Positions 5,091 to 58,913 of a DNA stretch of 64,000 nucleotides are shown piece by piece (the first letter of the stretch is position 1; every line of letters begins with the position of its first letter). The position numbers and the translations under genes were made by a program. Location of the stretch: NCBI GenBank assembly GCA_038061225.1, contig JBBTZT010000003.1, forward strand, positions 184,515 through 248,514. Direction: 5' to 3'. The DNA is from Patescibacteria group bacterium. Its GTDB lineage: Bacteria; Patescibacteriota; Microgenomatia; UBA8517. A model generated the notes under the pieces. That model did no database searches. It was not told where the DNA came from and saw nothing but the letters and a program-made list of their open reading frames with translations.

Positions 5091-6710
5091 ATGAATAGGA
5101 AATTACTTACCCTAGTTAGTATATTACTAACCTTTCTAATAGTCACTATATATTGGGGAATTACTAAAACTTTTTACCAGCAAGATGAATGGTTGGGATA
5201 TGGATTATATTTAGCAAAAGGCTCGGGTATGATTTTACAAAGCACTGGTAGTGTATTGGGAATAATTTTGGGACAGGGAAGAATTCTTACTAATTTAACG
5301 TATTTTGTATTCCATACATACTTTCCTCTCAATGTTTTTCCAATTGCCATTTTTTCTATTACTATTCACATAATTAATTCTTTTCTGGTTTATATACTAG
5401 GTAAAAATTTATTTAAAAATAAAATATCATCATTAATTGGAACACTTTTTTTTGCTTTTAATAGCTTACATTTAAATGCAATTGCTTGGCCTGCAGCCGC
5501 TATCAACACTCTACCCTCAACAACTTTAATTTTGATTGCATTGTTGTTTTATTTTAGATACATAAAGGAAGTAAAGGCAAAGTGGATGATTATGTGTTTT
5601 GCATTAATATACACATCTTTATTTTTCAAGGAAACGGGTATATTTTTATTTATTCTTCTTCCTTTATCATTAATCTTTTACAAAGGTTTTGATATAAAAA
5701 CTGTTATTAAAAAATTTTGGTATTATTTTTTACCATTAATATTAATTGTTAGTTATAGACTATGGGGATTTAGATCAGAGACAGGTGAAGTGGCATTATT
5801 TGTCACTGGGACTTCAAAATATTTTATGGATTCTTTGATAATTAGATCATTTTTATATCCAATTACTTCCATGTCACTTTCTTTGTTCCATCCTTCATAT
5901 ATGCTTGAATTTGCTCGTTATATTACAAACGTGTATTATCCATTTATACCGGAAGCTCAATTTGCATTAGTTACACAAACTATTGCCTTAGATTTAATTG
6001 CAGTTCTTGCCACAGCTTTAATAATAGTAACAATATTAATATTAATGAAATTTGTTAGTACCAATGTGAAAAAGAATGTATTGTTTTGGATGCTGTTTTT
6101 GTTAGCCAGTTTTTTGCCTTATATAATAATTTCCAAAAGTTTTTCGTATCTTGAATCTAGATATTATTATTTATCATCCGTTGCATGGGCAATTATTTTT
6201 ACATGGGTAGCCAATTTGATTAGTGAAAAAGTAAGACCAAAATACCTGCAACTATTGTTTTTGGCAATATTTTTATCTTTTATTTACGTTAATATAATAT
6301 TAATAAATTACGACTTGAAATTATTAGTTAAAGAATCGCAGACTAGAATTGATATTTTAAATCAAATTTCACTTATAAAACCAAAACTTACAGAAAACAG
6401 AAATATATTTTACGTAACAGGAGACACTGATTATTATTTGATAGGTCACAAGATTCCATTTCAGCAAGGATTTGGTTATACTCTTTTGACTTTTTATTTT
6501 GACAAAAGTCAATATCCTGCCGATTTTCTAAATAACACAGATCTTTTTGAAATTGGTAAAGAGATGTATTATGAAAAAGATGAATATGGTTTTGGATATT
6601 TTAGTAATATAATACTAATGGAAGAAGCAGTGAAGAGTAATAAAATTCCCACAAGTAATGTCTATAGATTTTATTATGATTCAAAAACCGCTAGGATGGA
6701 AAAAATTTGA
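5091..6710 (+). CDS. Polytopic membrane protein, putative GT-C glycosyltransferase (ArnT/PMT-like).
   Basis: More than 10 predicted TM helices, with a first-loop QQDEW (DE motif) as in the GT39/GT83 families. Confidence 0.4.
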   Translation: MNRKLLTLVSILLTFLIVTIYWGITKTFYQQDEWLGYGLYLAKGSGMILQSTGSVLGIILGQGRILTNLTYFVFHTYFPLNVFPIAIFSITIHIINSFLVYILGKNLFKNKISSLIGTLFFAFNSLHLNAIAWPAAAINTLPSTTLILIALLFYFRYIKEVKAKWMIMCFALIYTSLFFKETGIFLFILLPLSLIFYKGFDIKTVIKKFWYYFLPLILIVSYRLWGFRSETGEVALFVTGTSKYFMDSLIIRSFLYPITSMSLSLFHPSYMLEFARYITNVYYPFIPEAQFALVTQTIALDLIAVLATALIIVTILILMKFVSTNVKKNVLFWMLFLLASFLPYIIISKSFSYLESRYYYLSSVAWAIIFTWVANLISEKVRPKYLQLLFLAIFLSFIYVNIILINYDLKLLVKESQTRIDILNQISLIKPKLTENRNIFYVTGDTDYYLIGHKIPFQQGFGYTLLTFYFDKSQYPADFLNNTDLFEIGKEMYYEKDEYGFGYFSNIILMEEAVKSNKIPTSNVYRFYYDSKTARMEKI

Positions 6711-48609: not shown

Positions 48610-49878
48610 ATGGTTATGGCAAAACTATTAATAACTGGGGGTAAAAACTTGGAAGGAGAGATAAATATCTCGGGAAACAAAAATTCTGCTTTAAAACTTA
48701 TTCCTGCTGTACTTATGTCAAATAAAAAATCAATTTTAACAAACGTTCCGAATATTGCAGATGTTAGAGTTTTAATTGAAATAATAGAAAAATTAGGTGC
48801 AAAGATTAATTTTACAAATAATGTTTTAGAAATTGATCCTTCAACTCTAAATTCATATGAACCCGACTCTGATCTGTGTAGTAGAATTCGTGCTTCTGTT
48901 GTCCTTGCTGCTCCATTATTAGTTAGATTTGGAAAAGCAACATTAACCCCTCCTGGCGGAGATCAAATAGGAGATAGGTTGCTTGATACTCATTTCAGTT
49001 TGATGCAAAAATTAGGAGTTAACTTTACAAGAAAAGATGGGAAGTTTTATTTAACATGGGATAAAAATCCGCCAGCTGGCGGATCAATCAAAATATTTTT
49101 GGAAGAGGCATCGGTGACAGCAACAGAAATGGGTCTTATTATGGCCTCTTCAATGACAAATGAGGTAATTATTGAGGATGCAGCAGCAGAACCACACGTA
49201 GCTGATTTAATTAGTCTTCTTGTTAAAATGGGAGCTAAGATCAAAGGGTCAGGTACAAATACTCTTTTAATTTCTGGGGGTGAACTTAGTGGTGTTGAAC
49301 ATAAAGTAATGGCAGATCACATTGAAGGTGGCACTTTTGCAATTTTAAGTGCAATAACTAACGGGAATATAAAAATTAATAATTTTGAGCCAGAAAATTA
49401 TCATATGATATTGAACTATTTAAGTAATATGGGGGTTAAATATCAGATTGAAAAAGATAGTTTAATAGTTTTACCCTCAAATCTAAAAGCTAATAGACGT
49501 AAATTCCAGACAAGACCTTGGCCGGGATTTCCAACTGACCTGATGAGCCCATTTATTGTCCTTGCTACTCAAACTGAAGGTACAGTTCTCTGTCATGATT
49601 GGATGTATGAATGGAGAATGTTTTTTGTGGATGATTTAATTGGAATGGGAGCTAATATATTTATTGCTGATCCTCATAGAGTTATAGTTTCAGGACCAAC
49701 AAAATTAATGGCCGATAGACTTTTTTGCAAAGACATTAGAGCTGGAATCTCAGTAATTTTAGCTGCCTTGGTTGCAGAAGGAACAAGCACTATTGAAAAT
49801 GTAGAAGTTGTTGACAGAGGGTATGAAGATATAGAAAATCGATTAAAGTCTCTTGGAGCTTCTATAACAAAACAATGA
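48610..49878 (+). CDS. murA: UDP-N-acetylglucosamine 1-carboxyvinyltransferase MurA, with an Asp-for-Cys active-site variant.
   Basis: LLITGGKNLEGEINISGNKNSALKLIPAVLM. The active-site loop reads LTPPGGDQIGDRLLDTH, so the canonical Cys115 position carries Asp. Confidence 0.9.
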   Translation: MVMAKLLITGGKNLEGEINISGNKNSALKLIPAVLMSNKKSILTNVPNIADVRVLIEIIEKLGAKINFTNNVLEIDPSTLNSYEPDSDLCSRIRASVVLAAPLLVRFGKATLTPPGGDQIGDRLLDTHFSLMQKLGVNFTRKDGKFYLTWDKNPPAGGSIKIFLEEASVTATEMGLIMASSMTNEVIIEDAAAEPHVADLISLLVKMGAKIKGSGTNTLLISGGELSGVEHKVMADHIEGGTFAILSAITNGNIKINNFEPENYHMILNYLSNMGVKYQIEKDSLIVLPSNLKANRRKFQTRPWPGFPTDLMSPFIVLATQTEGTVLCHDWMYEWRMFFVDDLIGMGANIFIADPHRVIVSGPTKLMADRLFCKDIRAGISVILAALVAEGTSTIENVEVVDRGYEDIENRLKSLGASITKQ

Positions 49879-51776
49879 TTCAATTTGATTCAAGAAAAAT
49901 CAAAAAAGGTGACACTTTTGTAGCCATTAAAGGTCTGACTGTTGATGGTCACAATTATATTGAAGATGCAAAAAAAAGAGGGGCAGTTAAAATATATGAT
50001 CAAGGTGATACAAAACAGATTCTTGGTAAACTTGCTTCCGAGTATTATAAAAATCCAAGCTCAAAATTAAAAATAGTTGGAGTTACAGGTACGAAGGGAA
50101 AAACCACAACTTGTCATCTGATTCATCATATATTGACTCAAAACGGTAAAAAAACAGGACTCATATCAACAATCTCTGTTGATGGTTTTCATACCACTAC
50201 TCCTGATGTTGTGACTTTAAATAAAACTCTTGCTAAGATGGTTAATCAGGGTTATGAATATGTAGTTTTGGAGGTTAGCTCACATGGTATCGATCAAGGA
50301 AGAATTGCTGGTATCAAATTTGATATTTCGGTTCTAACAAATATAGCTCCAGAACATTTAGATTATCACAAAACATTTAAAGAATATAAACGTGTCAAAA
50401 TGATGTTTGTTAATTCAGCAAAATACAGAGTATTTAGTCCAAAAACTACTGATTTAAAAATTCTTAAAGGCGATTTTAACAACATAAATGCAGAAACAGC
50501 AATAGAAGTATGCAAGGAGTTGGGAATTAGTAAAGAAGAGTCTTTAAAAGTTTTAAAAAGTTTTAAACTTCCAAGTGGTAGGTTAGAAGAAATTAAAAAC
50601 AATCTAGGTTTCAGGATTTTTGTAGATTTTGCTCATACTCCAGATTCTTTAGAAGCTGTTCTTAAATATCTAAGAACTATAACTAAAGGTAGATTAATTT
50701 CTGTTTTTGGATGCGCGGGCGAAAGAGATCCAAGAAAAAGATCAAAAATGGGAAGAATCTCAACTAATTTAACAGATCTGTCTATTTTTACAGCAGAAGA
50801 TCCTAGAACTGAAAATATTTTAAAAATATTAAATCAAATGAAAAGAGGAGCTGTCAATAAAAAATATCTATCTATTCCAGAACGAGGGGAAGCTATTTCA
50901 TATGCCTTATCTGTTGCTCAAAACGGTGATATTATTGGTGTTTTTGGAAAAGGACATGAGAAAAGTATGTGTTTTGAAAATTATGAACATCCTTGGAGTG
51001 ATTATGATTTTATAATGAATCAAATTAATGGTTATAAAAATTTGACAGGAGTAATACTTGCTGGTGGAAGAGGGGCTAGGATGCACTCTAGTTTACCTAA
51101 AATTTTACATGCAATATCTGGTCGTCCAATGATTTCATTTTCCTTAGAAAATTTAAGAAATGCAGGAATAAAAAATATTGTTACTGTTTTTGGATATAAA
51201 AGGAATATAATTTTAAAAAGACTTTCTAAAAATATTAATTTTGCTATTCAACCAAAACCCTTGGGAACAGGAAATGCTGTATTAAATGCTTTTCCTAAAA
51301 TACCCAAAAAAACTAGTATGTTACTTGTAATAAACGGAGACGATAGTGCTTTTTATACACCTAAGACTATTAAAAATGTGATTGAACTTCATAAGAATAA
51401 TAATTCGATTTTGACTTTTGTTAGTCTTATACAGAAAAACCCAGCAGGTCTAGGAAGAGTTATCAGAGACATAAATGGTAAATTGTTAGGAATTGTAGAA
51501 GAAAAAAACGCAACAGAAAAACAGAAAAATATAAAAGAAGTAAATGATGGTTTATATGTTTTTAATTACAAATGGTTACAAAAAAATATTTTTAGAATTA
51601 AAAAAAATAGTGTTTCAAGCGAATATTATTTACCTGATTTAATCAAAATTGCTCTTAAAAATAAGGAAAAAGTCTCAGTTTATAAACTTCCTGATTCGTC
51701 GGAATGGCAGGGAATAAATACACCTGAACAACTTATAGAAGCTGAAAAAAAGATGCAAAAAAAACTTCAAAAATGA
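49875..51776 (+). CDS. murE: Fusion protein: MurE (UDP-MurNAc-L-Ala-D-Glu:diamino-acid ligase), residues about 1-385, plus a GlmU-type N-terminal sugar-1-phosphate uridyltransferase domain, residues about 390-633.
   Basis: Mur ligase part: IVGVTGTKGKTTT, EVSSHG, NIAPEHLDYH, VFGCAGERD, AEDPRTE, GKGHE. C-terminal part: GVILAGGRGARMHSSLPKILH...QPKPLGTGNAV...INGDD...EYYLPD. No hexapeptide acetyltransferase domain follows. Confidence 0.75.
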   Translation: MIQFDSRKIKKGDTFVAIKGLTVDGHNYIEDAKKRGAVKIYDQGDTKQILGKLASEYYKNPSSKLKIVGVTGTKGKTTTCHLIHHILTQNGKKTGLISTISVDGFHTTTPDVVTLNKTLAKMVNQGYEYVVLEVSSHGIDQGRIAGIKFDISVLTNIAPEHLDYHKTFKEYKRVKMMFVNSAKYRVFSPKTTDLKILKGDFNNINAETAIEVCKELGISKEESLKVLKSFKLPSGRLEEIKNNLGFRIFVDFAHTPDSLEAVLKYLRTITKGRLISVFGCAGERDPRKRSKMGRISTNLTDLSIFTAEDPRTENILKILNQMKRGAVNKKYLSIPERGEAISYALSVAQNGDIIGVFGKGHEKSMCFENYEHPWSDYDFIMNQINGYKNLTGVILAGGRGARMHSSLPKILHAISGRPMISFSLENLRNAGIKNIVTVFGYKRNIILKRLSKNINFAIQPKPLGTGNAVLNAFPKIPKKTSMLLVINGDDSAFYTPKTIKNVIELHKNNNSILTFVSLIQKNPAGLGRVIRDINGKLLGIVEEKNATEKQKNIKEVNDGLYVFNYKWLQKNIFRIKKNSVSSEYYLPDLIKIALKNKEKVSVYKLPDSSEWQGINTPEQLIEAEKKMQKKLQK

Positions 51777-53800: not shown

Positions 53801-55570
53801 TTACTTTACTGTCACGCTTTTAGCCAGATTACGTGGTTTGTCTGGATCTGCACCTCGACTAACGCCTAAATAATATCCCAAAAGTTGACCTGCAATTATA
53901 TTCCCAAAAATTGTTAACTCTCCCATATCAGGAGTTTTAATTAGGTCATCAAATTCGGGAGATTCAAATGGAGATATTCCAATAATCTCACCACCCCTTG
54001 CCTTTAATTCGGATGCACTTGATAGTACTTCATTTTTTACCTCGTCATTACTTGCAAGTACAAAACATGGGGTACCTTTTTGAATTAGTGTTATTACTCC
54101 GTGTTTTAATTCTCCGGCTGTAAAACTTTCGGCATGAATATATGAAGTCTCTTTTATTTTTAGTCCAAATTCTAATGCTGCAGGATAGTTTAAATTTTTA
54201 CCAATTACATACATATGTTCATTGTGCTCAATTTTTTTAATAAGTTTGATAATGTTTTCAGATAATTCATTCCCCAGCCATTTACTAAGTTTATTCGATA
54301 ATTTTTGGATATTCTTCTTAGCTTGAAGATACTTTCCTTCAGATGCTTTTGATAACAAATAGAGTGTTGCGAGCTGAGAAGTAAGAGCCTTAGTAGAAAC
54401 AACAGCTATTTCTGGTCCTGCACCAATCGGAATAATTAAATCAACCAGTCTTTCCATTGTTGACCCCCTACTATTAACAATCGCAGCAGTTCTGACCCCG
54501 TATTTTATTGCTTCCTTTAATGCAATTAAAGTATCTGCAGTTTCACCTGATTGGGATATTCCGATGACAACTGAATTTTTATCACAAAATTTAGCAAATG
54601 GTTTAAATTCATATGCACCATATATTTCAGTTTGTATACCTGATTGTGCAAAAAGATATTTTCCAAATTGGGCACAATATGCAGCAGTTCCACAACCAAT
54701 TAATATAACTTTTTTACTTTCCTTAATGATTTTTGCCAATTTTTTAATTGCATCTTTATTTATAAGAGATGACTTTAATATTGTTTTTGGTTGTTCGAAA
54801 ATTTCTTTTAGTAAAAAATGAGGATATCCATTTTTTTCTGCATCTTCTAACTGCCAATCTAAAGTCTTAATTTTTGCATTTATTTGTTTTCCTGTTTTGA
54901 TGTTAAATATCTCAATACCGTCTTTTGTGATTTCTGCCCCCTCTCCATCTTCTAGAAAATGAACTTTGTTGGTGTATTTTAAAAATGCGGGTACATCGCT
55001 TGCTAGAAAATACTGTTTTTTTATTTCGTCAAATCCAACTACTAGAGGGGAACCGTTTCTGCAAGCAATTATACTTTGAGAATTTTTATCTAGTGCACAG
55101 ATTGCATTTGAACCATTTAGAGACATAAACACATCAAAAGTGGCTTGCCTAATTCCTTTTGTCTTTAACTCGTCTTCGATAAGATGACTTACTACTTCTG
55201 TATCTGTCTCTGACTTGTATGCATGATTATTTTTTGATAGCTTCAGTTTCAATTCATGGTAGTTTTCAATTATTCCATTATGGATTACAGCTATTTGGTT
55301 TTTACAGTCGAGATGAGGGTGGGCATTTTCATCAGTTATACCGCCATGTGTTGCCCATCGTGTATGAGCAAGAGCTATGTTTGTTTTTGTTATCTTTGAT
55401 AGTTTTGAAGAACCAATTTTACCTGTGTGTTTTTCTATTTTTAAAACTTGTTTATCGATATAGGAAATACCCCAGCTATCATAGCCACGATATTCGAGAA
55501 GTTTTAATCCCTCAAACACAATTTCGGGAGCGTCTGTACGCTTACCTATATAGGCGAAAATTCCACACAT
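53801..55570 (-). CDS. glmS: Glutamine--fructose-6-phosphate aminotransferase (glucosamine-6-phosphate synthase).
   Basis: MCGIFAYIG with the Ntn Cys2; two SIS domains; C-terminal KSVTVK; 589 aa. Confidence 0.9.
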   Translation of the reverse strand: MCGIFAYIGKRTDAPEIVFEGLKLLEYRGYDSWGISYIDKQVLKIEKHTGKIGSSKLSKITKTNIALAHTRWATHGGITDENAHPHLDCKNQIAVIHNGIIENYHELKLKLSKNNHAYKSETDTEVVSHLIEDELKTKGIRQATFDVFMSLNGSNAICALDKNSQSIIACRNGSPLVVGFDEIKKQYFLASDVPAFLKYTNKVHFLEDGEGAEITKDGIEIFNIKTGKQINAKIKTLDWQLEDAEKNGYPHFLLKEIFEQPKTILKSSLINKDAIKKLAKIIKESKKVILIGCGTAAYCAQFGKYLFAQSGIQTEIYGAYEFKPFAKFCDKNSVVIGISQSGETADTLIALKEAIKYGVRTAAIVNSRGSTMERLVDLIIPIGAGPEIAVVSTKALTSQLATLYLLSKASEGKYLQAKKNIQKLSNKLSKWLGNELSENIIKLIKKIEHNEHMYVIGKNLNYPAALEFGLKIKETSYIHAESFTAGELKHGVITLIQKGTPCFVLASNDEVKNEVLSSASELKARGGEIIGISPFESPEFDDLIKTPDMGELTIFGNIIAGQLLGYYLGVSRGADPDKPRNLAKSVTVK

Positions 55571-55579
55571 AATATTTTT

Positions 55580-55750
55580 AATTGTAGAAAGATTAAATGA
55601 AGAAAATTGATTTTAATCCCTTTTCAGAAATAAATTACGATATCAACATATCGGTAGGCATCCGCAGATTATTCGATGTTGTCGAATTTCGATAAACCTA
55701 CTCCTCGTACACCAACCTTGTTAAAACTTAGCTGAGCCACACGCTATCAA
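55580..55750 (-). ncRNA. glmS ribozyme: Candidate glmS ribozyme (GlcN6P-responsive self-cleaving riboswitch) in the glmS 5' leader.
   Basis: The minus strand reads ACGAGGAGUAGGUUUAUCGAAAUUCG...GCGGAUGCCUACCG-(hairpin CGAUAU/GUUG/AUAUCG)-UAA. This parallels the Bacillus core GACGAGGAUGGAGGUUAUCGAAUUUUCGGCGGAUGCCUCCCGG...CGUAAGG. P2 shows a compensatory change, GUAGG/CCUAC versus GGAGG/CCUCC. Confidence 0.55.
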
Positions 55751-55794
55751 ATTTTTAAAGTTTCTTCACTTTTTTCTGTTAATCTTTGTCTATC

Positions 55795-56547
55795 TTATTC
55801 TACTTGTTTGGCAGCAGCTTTGTCAATAAAAATTATTGTACTATTTCCAACATCTTCTTTTTTGAGGTATGATGCCGGATTTAAAGGAGATATGGAGTTA
55901 TGTAGTGCATCTGCAAGAATTTTTCCTTTCTCTGGACCGTACAATATCACGATTCTCTCTTCAGTTTCACCGATATTAGCTAAACCTTGTGTTATGGCTG
56001 TAGGAGGTGTGTCTTGTTTTCTTTCGATGGTATCTCTTTCAAAAGTTACTCGTGATAGCTGTTGAAAATGAGTACGCATGGTAAAAATATCGAAATCATT
56101 ACTGCTTTCTGTAAATCCTAAATGCCCTCCTGGACCTACTCCTAAGATACAAACACTTATATTTTTAACTAGTTTGTCATATCTATCTGCTTCTGCGTAT
56201 GGATTTTTAGCTAAACCATCAATCGTTGCAATATTTCTTCGGTTTATGTTTAACGGTTTAAAAATACGATCGTAAAGAAATTGTGGAAAACTAAATTCAC
56301 CATTATTAGGATATTGCCAGTATTGGTCAAGATGACGAGCTAAAATTCTACTAAAGTCGACACCAGTAAGTTTAAAATTTTTAGCAAAAGGGATCATTGT
56401 GTCACCTGTTGCGAATGTTACAGGAATATCTGGATTCTTTTGCACTTTATTTGCAAAATACTCTGCTGCACCTTTTGCTGTTAAATTCTCATCTGGATAA
56501 ACACGAATTTCGTGTATGTTAGGGTGAGAAATTCGTTCAAATTCCAT
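55795..56547 (-). CDS. nagB: Glucosamine-6-phosphate deaminase (NagB/6-phosphogluconolactonase family).
   Basis: TFATGDTMIPF...ILGVGPGGHLGFTES; 250 aa; lies directly upstream of glmS on the same strand. Confidence 0.75.
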   Translation of the reverse strand: MEFERISHPNIHEIRVYPDENLTAKGAAEYFANKVQKNPDIPVTFATGDTMIPFAKNFKLTGVDFSRILARHLDQYWQYPNNGEFSFPQFLYDRIFKPLNINRRNIATIDGLAKNPYAEADRYDKLVKNISVCILGVGPGGHLGFTESSNDFDIFTMRTHFQQLSRVTFERDTIERKQDTPPTAITQGLANIGETEERIVILYGPEKGKILADALHNSISPLNPASYLKKEDVGNSTIIFIDKAAAKQVE

Positions 56548-56834
56548 TTAATTAATCAATGTCTTCGTCTGTGCTGGCTGCACCCGGTTGTGCGATTGGG
56601 GATGCTGTATTTCTTTATGCTGCTTTTAGATAGTCTCTGGTTGTTTGATTAAGTTCATTTGTTTTAATTCTATCTAAATCAGGTAAACCTTTTGTGTTAA
56701 GAAGGTTAGCTTTCTTATAATCGCTAGTGACCTCTTCTTGTCTTTTATCAAAATCTGGTGACATTTGTGTGAATAATATTACTATAAGTACTAATTGTCA
56801 AATTTTTAAAAAATTGACGTATAATATAACAAAC

Positions 56835-58913
56835 ATGAAAAAAATACATATGATGGGGATTTCGGGTAGTGGTATGAGTGGGGTGGCTTCACTTGCTTCT
56901 AAAATGGGATATACGGTCACAGGTTGTGATTTAAAAACAGGTGGACATAATAAGAAGCATTTAAATGACATTGATTTATTAATAGTATCTCCTGCCGTTT
57001 TATATCAGTCTAAAGATGAGCCGGAGTTACTTATTGCTAAAAAGAAAAAGATTGTTATGACTTGGGAGGAATTTGTGGGTAAGTTTTTAATGAAAAATAA
57101 GTTTGTAATAGCAATTGCTGGGACTCACGGTAAATCAACAACTACGGCTATGATTGGAAAAATGATGATAGATAACGGGTTTGATCCAACCGTGTTAATT
57201 GGTGCAAAAATACCTGAATGGAATGGAAATAGTAGATATGGGAAGAGTAAATATTTTGTCATAGAAGCTGATGAATTTAATGATAATTTCCTACATTATA
57301 AACCTGAGATTGCTATTGTAAACAATATTGAGTTTGATCATCCAGATTATTTTAAAAATAAAAAACAATTTAAAGATAGTTTTGACAAATTTATAAAACA
57401 ACTTGTTGGTGAAAAAATATTAATTAGTGAAAAAGATAGTTTAAATAAAAAATTTAAATTAAAAGTTTTTGGTAAACACAACCAAAAAAATGCCAATATG
57501 GCTTATTTATTGGGTAAGAGATTGGGAATTAGTGATCAGAAGATTATAAAATCATTAGAAAATTTTAATGGTATAGGAAGAAGAATGGAAGAGATATCAG
57601 ATAATATTTTTGATGATTATGCCCATCATCCAACAGCCATTAAAACCACGCTTCAAGGTTTGCGAAAAAAATATCCAACTAAAAAAATATTAGCGATTAT
57701 AGAACCCCATGGGTATAAACGCACAAAAGCACTTCTCAATTTATATGATGGAGTATTTGACTCAGTTGATAAAGTTATAATCGGGCCAATTTATAAGGCA
57801 AGGGACGAAATTGATAAAACAATATCTTCTGAGATGGTTGCAAAAGCATCAAATCATCCAAACGCTAAAGTGACAAATGACGTTGCAAATATATCAAAAA
57901 ACAACAACGATATTGTAATTTTTATGGGTGCTGGAAATAGTAATCAATGGGCTTTAAATTTTGTAAATAATAACATTTCATTTAAAGATTTGACTACTTT
58001 AAAAATAGGAGGGAAGATAAAATATTTTTTTGAAGTAAAAAATAAAAAAGAATTAGTTCAGAAAGTTAATTTTGCGAAGAAAAATAAATTAGCAATAATC
58101 ATACTTGGTGAGGGAAGTGATATTTTAGCAGGAGATAGAGATTTTAGTGGAGTAGTTATCAAATATGTAAATAATAAATTACAAATAATAAATAATAAGG
58201 TGGTTGCGGGTGCGGGGATGATTTGGGATGATTTGGTAAAAGAAACAGTTGATAAAAATTTCTCAGGAATTGAGTGTTTATCGGGTATTCCTGGAACAGT
58301 AGGAGCAGCTCCAATACAAAACATTGGGGCTTATGGACAAGAACTCTCAGACACCTTTGTCAATTTGACTGCTTACGATATTGAAAATAAAAAATTTACT
58401 GAATTTAATAAAGATGATTGCCATTTTGGTTATAGAAAAAGTATTTTTAAAGATAAAAAATATTGGCAGAAATTTATTATCACTGATGTAGTATTTTTAT
58501 TAAATAAGAACAAAAATTTAGACTTAAATAAAATTCGGCAAGATATTTTAAAAATAAGAGCTGAAAAATTAGAAAATCCTAAAGATATACCAAATGCTGG
58601 ATCATTTTTTATTAATCCTTTTGTCAATCTTAAAACAAAAGAAAGATTAGAAAAAAAATATCCAGATATGAAATTTTATATTATAGGTGATAAGTTTAAG
58701 ATCTCTGCAGGGTATTTGATAGAAAAAACTGGTTGGAAAGGAAAAAGCTTAGGTCCTGTCAAGGTTTCTGATAAACATGCTTTAATTTTGACAAACCCGG
58801 AAGGGCGAGGAAATTTCAATGATATCAAAAAATTAGCATATGCAATAACTGGTGCTGTCTATAAAAAATTTGGTTTAAAACTTGAGCCTGAAGTACAATA
58901 TATAAATATATGA
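56835..58913 (+). CDS. murC: Bifunctional MurC-MurB fusion: UDP-MurNAc--L-alanine ligase joined to UDP-N-acetylenolpyruvoylglucosamine reductase.
   Basis: N-terminal MMGISGSGMSGVA...AIAGTHGKSTTTAMI...IEADEFNDNF is MurC. The C-terminal 280 aa, LKIGGKIKYFFEV..., GIECLSGIPGTVGAAPIQNIGAYGQE and GYRKS, match the MurB FAD-binding and substrate domains. The start is taken at ATG 56835 (MKKIHMMGISG). Confidence 0.85.
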   Translation: MKKIHMMGISGSGMSGVASLASKMGYTVTGCDLKTGGHNKKHLNDIDLLIVSPAVLYQSKDEPELLIAKKKKIVMTWEEFVGKFLMKNKFVIAIAGTHGKSTTTAMIGKMMIDNGFDPTVLIGAKIPEWNGNSRYGKSKYFVIEADEFNDNFLHYKPEIAIVNNIEFDHPDYFKNKKQFKDSFDKFIKQLVGEKILISEKDSLNKKFKLKVFGKHNQKNANMAYLLGKRLGISDQKIIKSLENFNGIGRRMEEISDNIFDDYAHHPTAIKTTLQGLRKKYPTKKILAIIEPHGYKRTKALLNLYDGVFDSVDKVIIGPIYKARDEIDKTISSEMVAKASNHPNAKVTNDVANISKNNNDIVIFMGAGNSNQWALNFVNNNISFKDLTTLKIGGKIKYFFEVKNKKELVQKVNFAKKNKLAIIILGEGSDILAGDRDFSGVVIKYVNNKLQIINNKVVAGAGMIWDDLVKETVDKNFSGIECLSGIPGTVGAAPIQNIGAYGQELSDTFVNLTAYDIENKKFTEFNKDDCHFGYRKSIFKDKKYWQKFIITDVVFLLNKNKNLDLNKIRQDILKIRAEKLENPKDIPNAGSFFINPFVNLKTKERLEKKYPDMKFYIIGDKFKISAGYLIEKTGWKGKSLGPVKVSDKHALILTNPEGRGNFNDIKKLAYAITGAVYKKFGLKLEPEVQYINI

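Follow-up and report, generated by a model that had tools for sequence, protein, structure and literature searches.

The glmS gene of a Patescibacteria group bacterium (contig JBBTZT010000003.1) is preceded by an intergenic region of 224 nt, which reaches on the minus strand from the stop of the upstream gene at 55795 to the glmS ATG at 55570 of the 64,000-nt stretch of DNA that was analysed (further called the window), and this locus raises the question whether bacteria of the candidate phyla radiation (CPR) possess a glmS ribozyme in the leader of this gene. An earlier inspection of the letters alone, to which we refer as the sequence-only reading, had put forward a candidate self-cleaving glmS ribozyme at 55580-55750, in a gap counted as 225 nt. 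When the complete 64-kb window was compared to all 4227 Rfam families at gathering thresholds, a single family was found: RF00234, the glmS ribozyme, matches the minus strand at 55756-55603 with 42.6 bits compared to a gathering score of 37 (E 1.4e-6, stated for the whole window), and this is the hit that had been named beforehand as a check. The match is full-length (cmscan, model positions 1-167 covered) and the glmS ATG lies 33 nt downstream of it on the same strand. A strain variant differing by one single-nucleotide polymorphism (SNP; L078) scores 43.6 bits. The interval originally proposed does hold the ribozyme, with its borders to be redrawn to those of the Rfam match and, including the promoter and the enclosing helix P0 described below, to about 55826 to 55584. 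Judged from its sequence, this leader is a genuine glmS ribozyme-riboswitch, an element of a kind already known, and we infer that it very probably functions as such in the 5' leader of the glmS mRNA of a Microgenomates-type CPR bacterium. The family-model match, the presence of the indispensable residues, the foldability, the covariation of helices in relatives and the conservation of the element carry this reading.

Positions in the RNA are numbered such that position n equals window coordinate 55745 minus n, the Rfam consensus was mapped onto the crystal-structure numbering of PMC7125110, and all features are on the minus strand unless marked otherwise. The core strings listed in the sequence-only reading were all recovered where it had placed them (ACGAGGAG at 55708-55701, UUUAUCGAAAUUCG at 55696-55683 and GCGGAUGCCUACCG at 55665-55652), as was a 6-bp hairpin, CGAUAU/AUAUCG at 55653-55638, directly followed by UAA. 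The AGCG motif of the cleavage site is present too, at 55745-55742 and not one base away at 55741-55744 as first given; alignment to the RF00234 consensus AGCG predicts cleavage at 55744-55745, between A(-1) at 55745 and G1 at 55744, and the motif is kept as (A/G)GCG in 20 of 20 CPR copies. The P2.2 5' strand (C2 G3 U4 G5, bulged U6, G7; 55738-55743) forms five out of five pairs with the 3' strand CUGCG (55663-55667), namely C2-G82, G3-C81, U4.G80, G5.U79 and G7-C78, an assignment based on pairing and on covariation at the pairs 4-54 and 5-53; G83, the equivalent of the essential G57, comes next. P2 consists of GUAGG (55697-55701) and CCUAC (55654-55658), again with 5/5 pairs. P2.1 joins C38 G39 A40 of the active-site strand ACGAGGA (55702-55708, invariant in 17/17 distinct CPR sequences) to U53 C54 G55 of the cofactor-pocket strand, located in AUCGAA (55688-55693, invariant), by the three pairs C38-G55, G39-C54 and A40-U53. 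With 5/5, 5/5 and 3/3 pairs the double-pseudoknot core P2.2-P2-P2.1 is formable; what Rfam draws as 'P2a' corresponds in the crystal-structure nomenclature to the P2.1 3' strand (UCG), a linker and the P2.2 3' strand. P3 (55638-55653) has 6/6 pairs and a GUUG loop, which together with A102 provides the 5' strand of P3.1 and pairs 5/5 with UCAAU (55606-55610). In P1 (positions 8-35; 55710-55737), an imperfect hairpin interrupted by a 2x2 internal loop, pairs form at 8 of 12 positions; the helix is weak (-4.7 kcal/mol, two basal mismatches). The helices whose ability to form had been put up for checking, P1, P2.2, P3 and P4, can all be folded, likewise P2.1, P2 and P3.1. In the model ribozyme, single mutants at seven positions do not cleave (G1, C2, G3, A27, C28, G56 and G57, of which A27 and C28 belong to the ACGAGGA strand) (PMC7125110). 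All seven are present at the aligned sites in the window and are invariant in the 17 distinct CPR copies.

The window copy is no lone outlier. From collections of genomes and metagenomes, 155 loci surrounding relatives of GlmS were retrieved, 15 of which carry RF00234 above threshold directly upstream of glmS (L001, L003-L008, L017, L033, L037, L078, L083, L087, L109 and L149); apart from L078, the 14 others represent other organisms and score 50.7-74.6 bits. Further copies with the same core and large insertions fall below threshold (L032/L121, L063/L112, L110 and L118). Insertions of ~115 nt in P1, of 75-95 nt in the linker hairpin h2 discussed below and of ~100 nt in P3 explain why L063/L112, L110 and L032/L121 stay under the Rfam gathering score despite an intact core. 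Altogether about 20 distinct CPR sequences are found in public assemblies, most of them above the Rfam threshold; those that are named come from Roizmanbacteria, Woesebacteria, WWE3, Microgenomates or unclassified Patescibacteria, and every copy found is tied to glmS. No copy was present 5' of glmS in the fetched loci of Levyibacteria, Peregrinibacteria, Gracilibacteria, Saccharibacteria, Chlamydiota, Bacteroidota and archaea. Eight of the loci (L003, L005, L006, L013, L017, L022, L023 and L067) belong to third party annotation (TPA) records of metagenome-assembled genomes (MAGs) titled 'uncultured Gammaproteobacteria bacterium'; their GlmS proteins and ribozymes cluster with those of Roizmanbacteria and Woesebacteria, and from the sequences these labels look wrong. 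The CPR metagenome contig L118 carries, next to its glmS ribozyme, an S-adenosylmethionine (SAM-I) riboswitch (RF00162, 50.4 bits compared to a threshold of 44.4; 5682-5770, minus strand), a further riboswitch of a classic type in CPR bacteria.

Twenty copies including the window were parsed (that of L004 by hand), and 17 distinct CPR sequences were aligned over 44 columns of fixed blocks, which were set by sequence anchors and not by pairing. Across these 17 sequences the three core helices are paired in 94.6% of cells, compared to 20-44% when the partners are slid by 1-3 columns; 14 cells show double changes, and none of 500 shuffles reached the observed pairing or covariation score. Within P2.2, the pair 4-54 occurs as U.G, C-G and U-A and the pair 5-53 as G.U, A-U and U-A. 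The compensatory change in P2 pointed out in the sequence-only reading proved real and is one of five complementary versions found family-wide (GUAGG/CCUAC, GAGGG/CCCUC, AAAGG/CCUUU, AAGGG/CCCUU and GAAGG/CCUUC), P2 being fully paired (5/5) in 20/20 copies, a count that allows a 1-nt register shift where an extra A follows ACGAGGA (5/17 aligned and 6/20 parsed sequences). The unpaired P2 cells in the alignment were dismissed as an artefact of this shift, since all 20 copies pair 5/5 once it is allowed. For P3.1, the P3 loop was matched to the 14 nt that follow P4; added up across the 17 sequences, their complementarity is 87, compared to 61.7±3.4 for shuffled and 66.7±3.8 for swapped tails (0/2000 each). 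This anchored test replaced a search for the longest complement of the P3 loop anywhere in the 105 nt downstream, which was not significant per sequence and chose wrong sites.

The closest relative, the Woesebacteria copy L008, allows a comparison between ribozyme and coding sequence. Over 117 aligned nt the two ribozymes are 87% identical, compared to 49% at the third codon positions of glmS and 40% at those of conserved fourfold-type residues. The element is thus far better conserved than neutral sites and is under purifying selection. The differences include two double compensatory changes in P3 (A94-U105 to U-A and A96-U103 to G-C) next to one G-C to G.U change, and one double compensatory change in P4 (U-A to C-G).

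The sequence-only reading had regarded P2a as non-canonical because of an insertion of roughly 17 nt. The insertion is indeed located there, measuring 16 nt relative to L008 and 18 nt where the model has 2 according to cmscan, and it adds a hairpin to a linker with no helix altered; the less canonical feature, passed over at the time, is the absence of P4.1. P4 (55613-55633) is a plain hairpin with a GAAA(A) cap, having 7 of 8 pairs or, in an alternative register, 6 bp closed on a GAAA tetraloop. P4.1, the GNRA loop L4 and the 3' half of the internal loop IL4 are all missing (cmscan places one position for 27 model positions), and the P4 loop UGAAAAG retains the adenine run that normally makes up the 5' half of IL4. 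In B. subtilis the IL4 adenines pack on P2.1 and L4 docks on a G-C receptor in P1 (PMC11602151). Since the accessory domain has been published as non-essential for ligand-induced cleavage and needed mainly at low Mg2+ (PMC1635283), we did not take the absent P4-IL4-P4.1 arm as disqualifying. A short P4 without P4.1 is also found in L008, which has the same architecture with a GAAAA cap, and a similar, GAAA-capped one in L149. In the GlmS tree, L149 stands with L006 (78% identity), which keeps P4.1, and the window stands with L008 and L076; on this topology the arm was lost at least twice, independently in L149 and in the clade of the window and L008, and this repeated loss argues that the short form works.

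The inserted hairpin, h2 (A58-U74; 55671-55687), occupies the linker that leads from the P2.1 3' strand to the P2.2 3' strand; its 6/6 pairs close a CAACA loop, and the centroid fold contains it. Of the 19 other CPR copies parsed, 14 have a hairpin at the same site, and 12 of the 19 additionally carry h1, a hairpin in the linker before it, which connects the P2 5' strand to the P2.1 3' strand. The h2 of L007, CCUUCGAUCAAAAAUCGAAGAG, is similar in sequence to that of the window, AUUCGACAACAUCGAAU; an AUCGAA repeat flanks the latter, which makes a local duplication a plausible origin. An alternative register for P2.1, with U69 C70 G71 in place of U53 C54 G55 and the insertion in the other linker, was rejected: it leaves a weaker 4-bp hairpin, the centroid fold contains the A58-U74 hairpin, and in the relatives the hairpins at the h2 site are directly preceded by AAUCGRA. 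The combination of h2 with an absent P4.1 is restricted to the window among the copies seen, L008 and L149 being without h2. At the base of P1, the strain variants L074 and L078 have G35A, by which they regain the G-A juxtaposition typical of most CPR copies; mismatches at this base have little effect on catalysis (PMC7125110).

A further helix, which we call P0, encloses the whole ribozyme. Its leader strands AAGAUUAA (55786-55779) and GUGAAGAAA (55769-55761), separated by a 9-nt bulge and delimited with RNAduplex (55761-55786), pair with tail strands at 55584-55605: GUGAAGAAA with UUUCUUCAU (55605-55597) and AAGAUUAA with UUAAUCUU (55596-55589), possibly extended by UCUAC (55588-55584). The tail begins directly 3' of P3.1 and ends 14 nt before the glmS ATG. 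For the window RNAduplex gives -16.2 kcal/mol, and 3 of 300 shuffles are as stable. P0 was found around the whole ribozyme in 17/17 CPR copies tested, with sequences that differ and covary between copies (e.g. AAGUAGU/ACUACUU, GAGGAUU/AAUCCUC, AAAAAGUAG/CUACUUUUU and GUAGCUC/GAGCUAC); the copies named as carrying it are the window, L001-L008, L017, L033, L037, L063, L083, L087, L109, L118 and L149. Summed over the 17 copies, the duplex energy amounts to -293.6 kcal/mol, compared to -180.7±11.4 for shuffled tails and -191.6±12.0 when partners are swapped between sequences (0/300 in both cases). The placement is regular as well: the tail strand starts immediately after P3.1 in 14/17 copies, and 11-16 nt separate the end of the leader strand from the cleavage site in 16/17. 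P0 was not found in the sole Bacillota copy examined, on an Anoxybacillus plasmid (142 bits; -13.1 compared to -14.2±2.9).

Just upstream of P0, a sigma70-like promoter matches the consensus at 11 of 12 positions (55797-55826), with TTGACA at 55826-55821, an 18-nt spacer and TAGAAT at 55802-55797, overlapping the stop codon of the upstream NagB-like open reading frame (ORF). From the consensus match alone, transcription is predicted to start near 55790. Seven relatives have TTGACA boxes matching at 5/6 or 6/6 positions, and the promoter-like sites place the start 0-3 nt before the outer P0 strand. Between the P0 tail and the glmS start, the Roizmanbacteria-type loci L006, L083, L004, L005, L149, L087 and L001 share a conserved GCUCCAUUAUAA-like motif, which is not present in the window; containing a TATAAT-like hexamer, it could be a second promoter that bypasses the ribozyme or an extension of P0.

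How would such a leader act? As reported by Winkler in 2004 and Collins in 2007, glucosamine-6-phosphate (GlcN6P) serves the glmS ribozyme as cofactor for cleavage, and the cleaved glmS message decays. Applying the mechanism of the family, for which we also drew on PMC5473149 and PMC10810187, accumulating GlcN6P would bind the preformed pocket as cleavage cofactor and the RNA would be cut between A55745 and G55744. The cleaved message, left with a 5'-OH end, would be degraded and GlmS synthesis would fall, which would place the first step in making cell-wall amino sugars under negative feedback. In the window the accessory domain would be reduced to P3/P3.1 and the GAAA(A)-capped P4, with the docking of L4 on P1 lost; conjecturally, the adenines of the P4 loop may replace the IL4 adenines that normally pack on P2.1. 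P0 would stack directly after P3.1 and keep the 5'-terminal nucleotides of the transcript base-paired. The reading that we prefer for it, again a conjecture, is that P0 clamps a fold that is weak and rich in AU and also protects the native 5' end; an uncleaved message would then be stable, whereas a cleaved one would have an exposed end without protection.

Several points weigh against a functional ribozyme-riboswitch working in this way. Cleavage, dependence on GlcN6P and mRNA decay are all carried over from what is known of the family, and the role given to P0 is conjecture, its apparent absence outside CPR concerning one Firmicute sequence. RNase J is the nuclease that degrades the 5'-OH product in Bacillus; neither RNase J nor RNase Y was found among 17 scanned ORFs of the window (nine compared to NCBIfam and ten to Pfam, two in both), which include 10 of its 31 ORFs of at least 330 aa. 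The window score of 42.6 is the lowest among the CPR matches, the others reaching 50-75 bits, and four of 12 P1 positions are unpaired with a U-U mismatch in P4. The nested minimum free energy (MFE) is not unusually stable (z = -0.51), a measure that is uninformative for an AU-rich pseudoknotted RNA. Position 26 is U in the window and most CPR copies, and G in the model ribozyme, where it forms a base triple with G7-C52 (PMC7125110). The L4-P1 contact and the IL4 adenines matter for the full-length B. subtilis ribozyme (PMC11602151), and the window copy is without L4, P4.1 and the 3' half of IL4. Finally, some close relatives manage without the element: L076, a contig of the Hain-H41 assembly ERZ1292625 from the same aquifer with 75% GlmS identity, has a short, divergent intergenic region and no ribozyme, and in L082/L084 (~60% GlmS identity), likewise without ribozyme, glmS abuts a gene with hexapeptide repeats (GlmU C-terminal-like). 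The ribozyme has thus been lost repeatedly within the group and is dispensable there.

The main alternative, which we consider improbable, is a decaying relic, i.e. a one-time glmS ribozyme that has ceased to cleave and to regulate. Such a history could account for the lowest score among the CPR copies, for the loss of P4.1 and L4, for the mismatches in P1 and P4, for the 16 nt inserted beside the cofactor-pocket strand and for the absence from the sister lineage L076 and from L082 and L084, and L110 does look degenerate in P3/P3.1. A decaying element would, however, hardly have kept all indispensable residues and the three core helices intact, nor 87% identity to L008 next to 40-49% at glmS third positions. 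In P3 and P4 the window copy departs from L008 by compensatory, non-random changes, the inserted nucleotides form a 6-bp hairpin without mismatch where most other parsed copies have a hairpin as well, and the form without P4.1 arose twice. Moreover, the window sequence recurs, one SNP apart, in several independent samples.

Even less probable in our view is self-cleavage under altered control, be it constitutive, responsive to another amino sugar or at much higher ligand concentrations. The U for G at position 26, the two G.U wobbles of P2.2 near the active site and the lost docking of L4 on P1 would fit this explanation, a few active-site mutations suffice to remove the GlcN6P requirement in vitro (PMC11602151), and the adjoining NagB-like gene hints at an unusual amino-sugar metabolism; yet the pocket strands ACGAGGA, UCG and GCGG are identical to the consensus and the element is tied to glmS in every copy. 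A merely fortuitous similarity of AT-rich intergenic sequence, to which the MFE z-score of only -0.51 and a score only 5.6 bits over threshold might point, is in practice excluded by the comparative data, given the E-value of 1.4e-6, the correct strand and position relative to glmS, the copies of 50-75 bits at the same position in relatives and the covariation that backs the structure.

The host is a Microgenomates-type CPR bacterium from Hainich groundwater. The exact GlmS protein of the window also occurs on contigs of Hainich groundwater assemblies, among them the 157-kb contig Hain_H41_01um_R3_92, and among species genomes the closest GlmS (74% identity) is found in a Woesebacteria MAG, followed by Roizmanbacteria, which bears out the guess of a CPR-like genome (G+C ~30%) in the sequence-only reading. 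Its assignment of the downstream gene held as well: glmS (53801-55570, 589 aa, glutamine--fructose-6-phosphate transaminase) scores 607.9 bits with NF001484 (cut-off 381) and 588 with TIGR01135 (cut-off 418). For the upstream gene, called nagB, a weaker wording is appropriate. This 250-aa ORF (55795-56547), which lies outside the ribozyme and bears the promoter in its 3' end, passes the Pfam cut-off for Glucosamine_iso (32.2 compared to 27) and stays far from those of NCBIfam (TIGR00502 nagB, 85.8 compared to 236.9; NF001684, 101 compared to 326). All 11 of its PDB matches are GlcN6P deaminases (E 4e-17 to 1.5e-10), and GPGGHLGFTES aligns with GPDGHIAFNEP of 3hn6, retaining the His and Glu and replacing the Asp by Gly, so GPGGH stands for GPDGH; the catalytic roles of these residues we take to be those of E. 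coli NagB. A NagB-like gene with GPGGH is linked to glmS in three lineages, namely 5' of the ribozyme in the window and in L008 (2044-2796; 49% identity) and 3' of glmS on the same strand in L032 (4895-5614) and L121 (4395-5114). A deaminase-like enzyme beside the synthase that it would oppose is odd, and it may work in the biosynthetic direction or on another substrate.

The wider neighbourhood is a cell-wall cluster with an FtsI-type penicillin-binding protein, MurA, YvcK, MurD, another Mur ligase and two fusions, the one of MurE with the N-terminal uridyltransferase half of GlmU (633 aa, 49875-51776, plus strand) and the other of MurC with MurB (728 aa, 56727-58913, plus strand). Downstream of glmS, an acyltransferase ORF (PF01553; 52777-53127, minus strand) encodes 116 aa compared to 162 aa in a strain variant from the same aquifer (L073, 5253-5741), and a 5' truncation or a frameshift may have shortened it in the window; the two small ORFs that separate this ORF from glmS (102 and 69 aa) matched no family. 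A Shine-Dalgarno-like core precedes just 5 of the 32 long ORFs of the window, and several ORFs have a TATAAT box a few nt before the start codon (e.g. starts 48610, 56727, 61217, 39962 and 11527), which suggests that leaderless mRNAs or mRNAs with a very short leader are common in this genome. Against this background the ~220-nt glmS leader is an exception, presumably kept for regulation.

We found no published mention of glmS ribozymes in Patescibacteria in the literature searched, and the present copies place the sole known metabolite-cofactor ribozyme class in this group. Gene regulation in Patescibacteria is almost unstudied, and riboswitches are considered promising for genetic tools there (PMC11665869); a native ligand-responsive RNA switch could help to build these. 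With the element located inside a cell-wall cluster, these ultrasmall cells would still control by feedback the step at which the synthesis of peptidoglycan sugars begins. With slightly more doubt than belief, we consider that the CPR/Microgenomates ribozymes may form an undescribed, distinct subclass, with P0 in the expression platform, linker hairpins, P2.2 covariation and repeated loss of P4.1/L4. If so, optional hairpins would flank the cofactor-pocket strand in both linkers, and the window would have one of the shortest natural accessory domains. The P2.2 covariation was not detectable in earlier alignments (PMC2258182). The copies without P4.1, the hairpins at the pocket side and P0 may be regarded as natural tests of the extent to which the double-pseudoknot core depends on its periphery.

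Compared to the glmS ribozymes of Bacillota (B. subtilis, B. anthracis, Thermoanaerobacter tengcongensis; RF00234), the window element shares the position in the glmS leader, the A|GCG site, the ACGAGGA, UCG and GCGG strands, the P2.2-P2-P2.1 double pseudoknot, P1, P3/P3.1 and the adenine run after P4. Unlike these, it is without P4.1, the L4 GNRA loop and the 3' half of IL4, has an extra linker hairpin, has U.G and G.U wobbles for C4-G54 and C5-G53, U for G at position 26 and a mismatched P1 base, and possesses P0, which the Anoxybacillus copy lacks. With the other CPR copies (e.g. L008 of Woesebacteria, L001/L004 of Roizmanbacteria, L033 of WWE3 and L037 of Microgenomates) it has in common the AGCGURUG start, U26, the placement of P0 and the promoter just upstream, whereas 16 of the 19 others have P4.1 with a GNRA (mostly GUAA) loop and their insertions are often much larger. 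An engineered 66-nt core consisting of P1-P2.2 only is catalytically competent and tolerates mismatches at the P1 base (PMC7125110); with P3, P3.1 and a short P4 kept, the window ribozyme represents a partial reduction and no bare core. Around a canonical core, the shortened accessory domain, the hairpins in the linkers and P0 amount to variations at the periphery, of interest to RNA structural biologists and to those seeking regulatory parts for Patescibacteria, in an element that the standard Rfam model detects and that belongs to a well-known family of which nothing is overturned.

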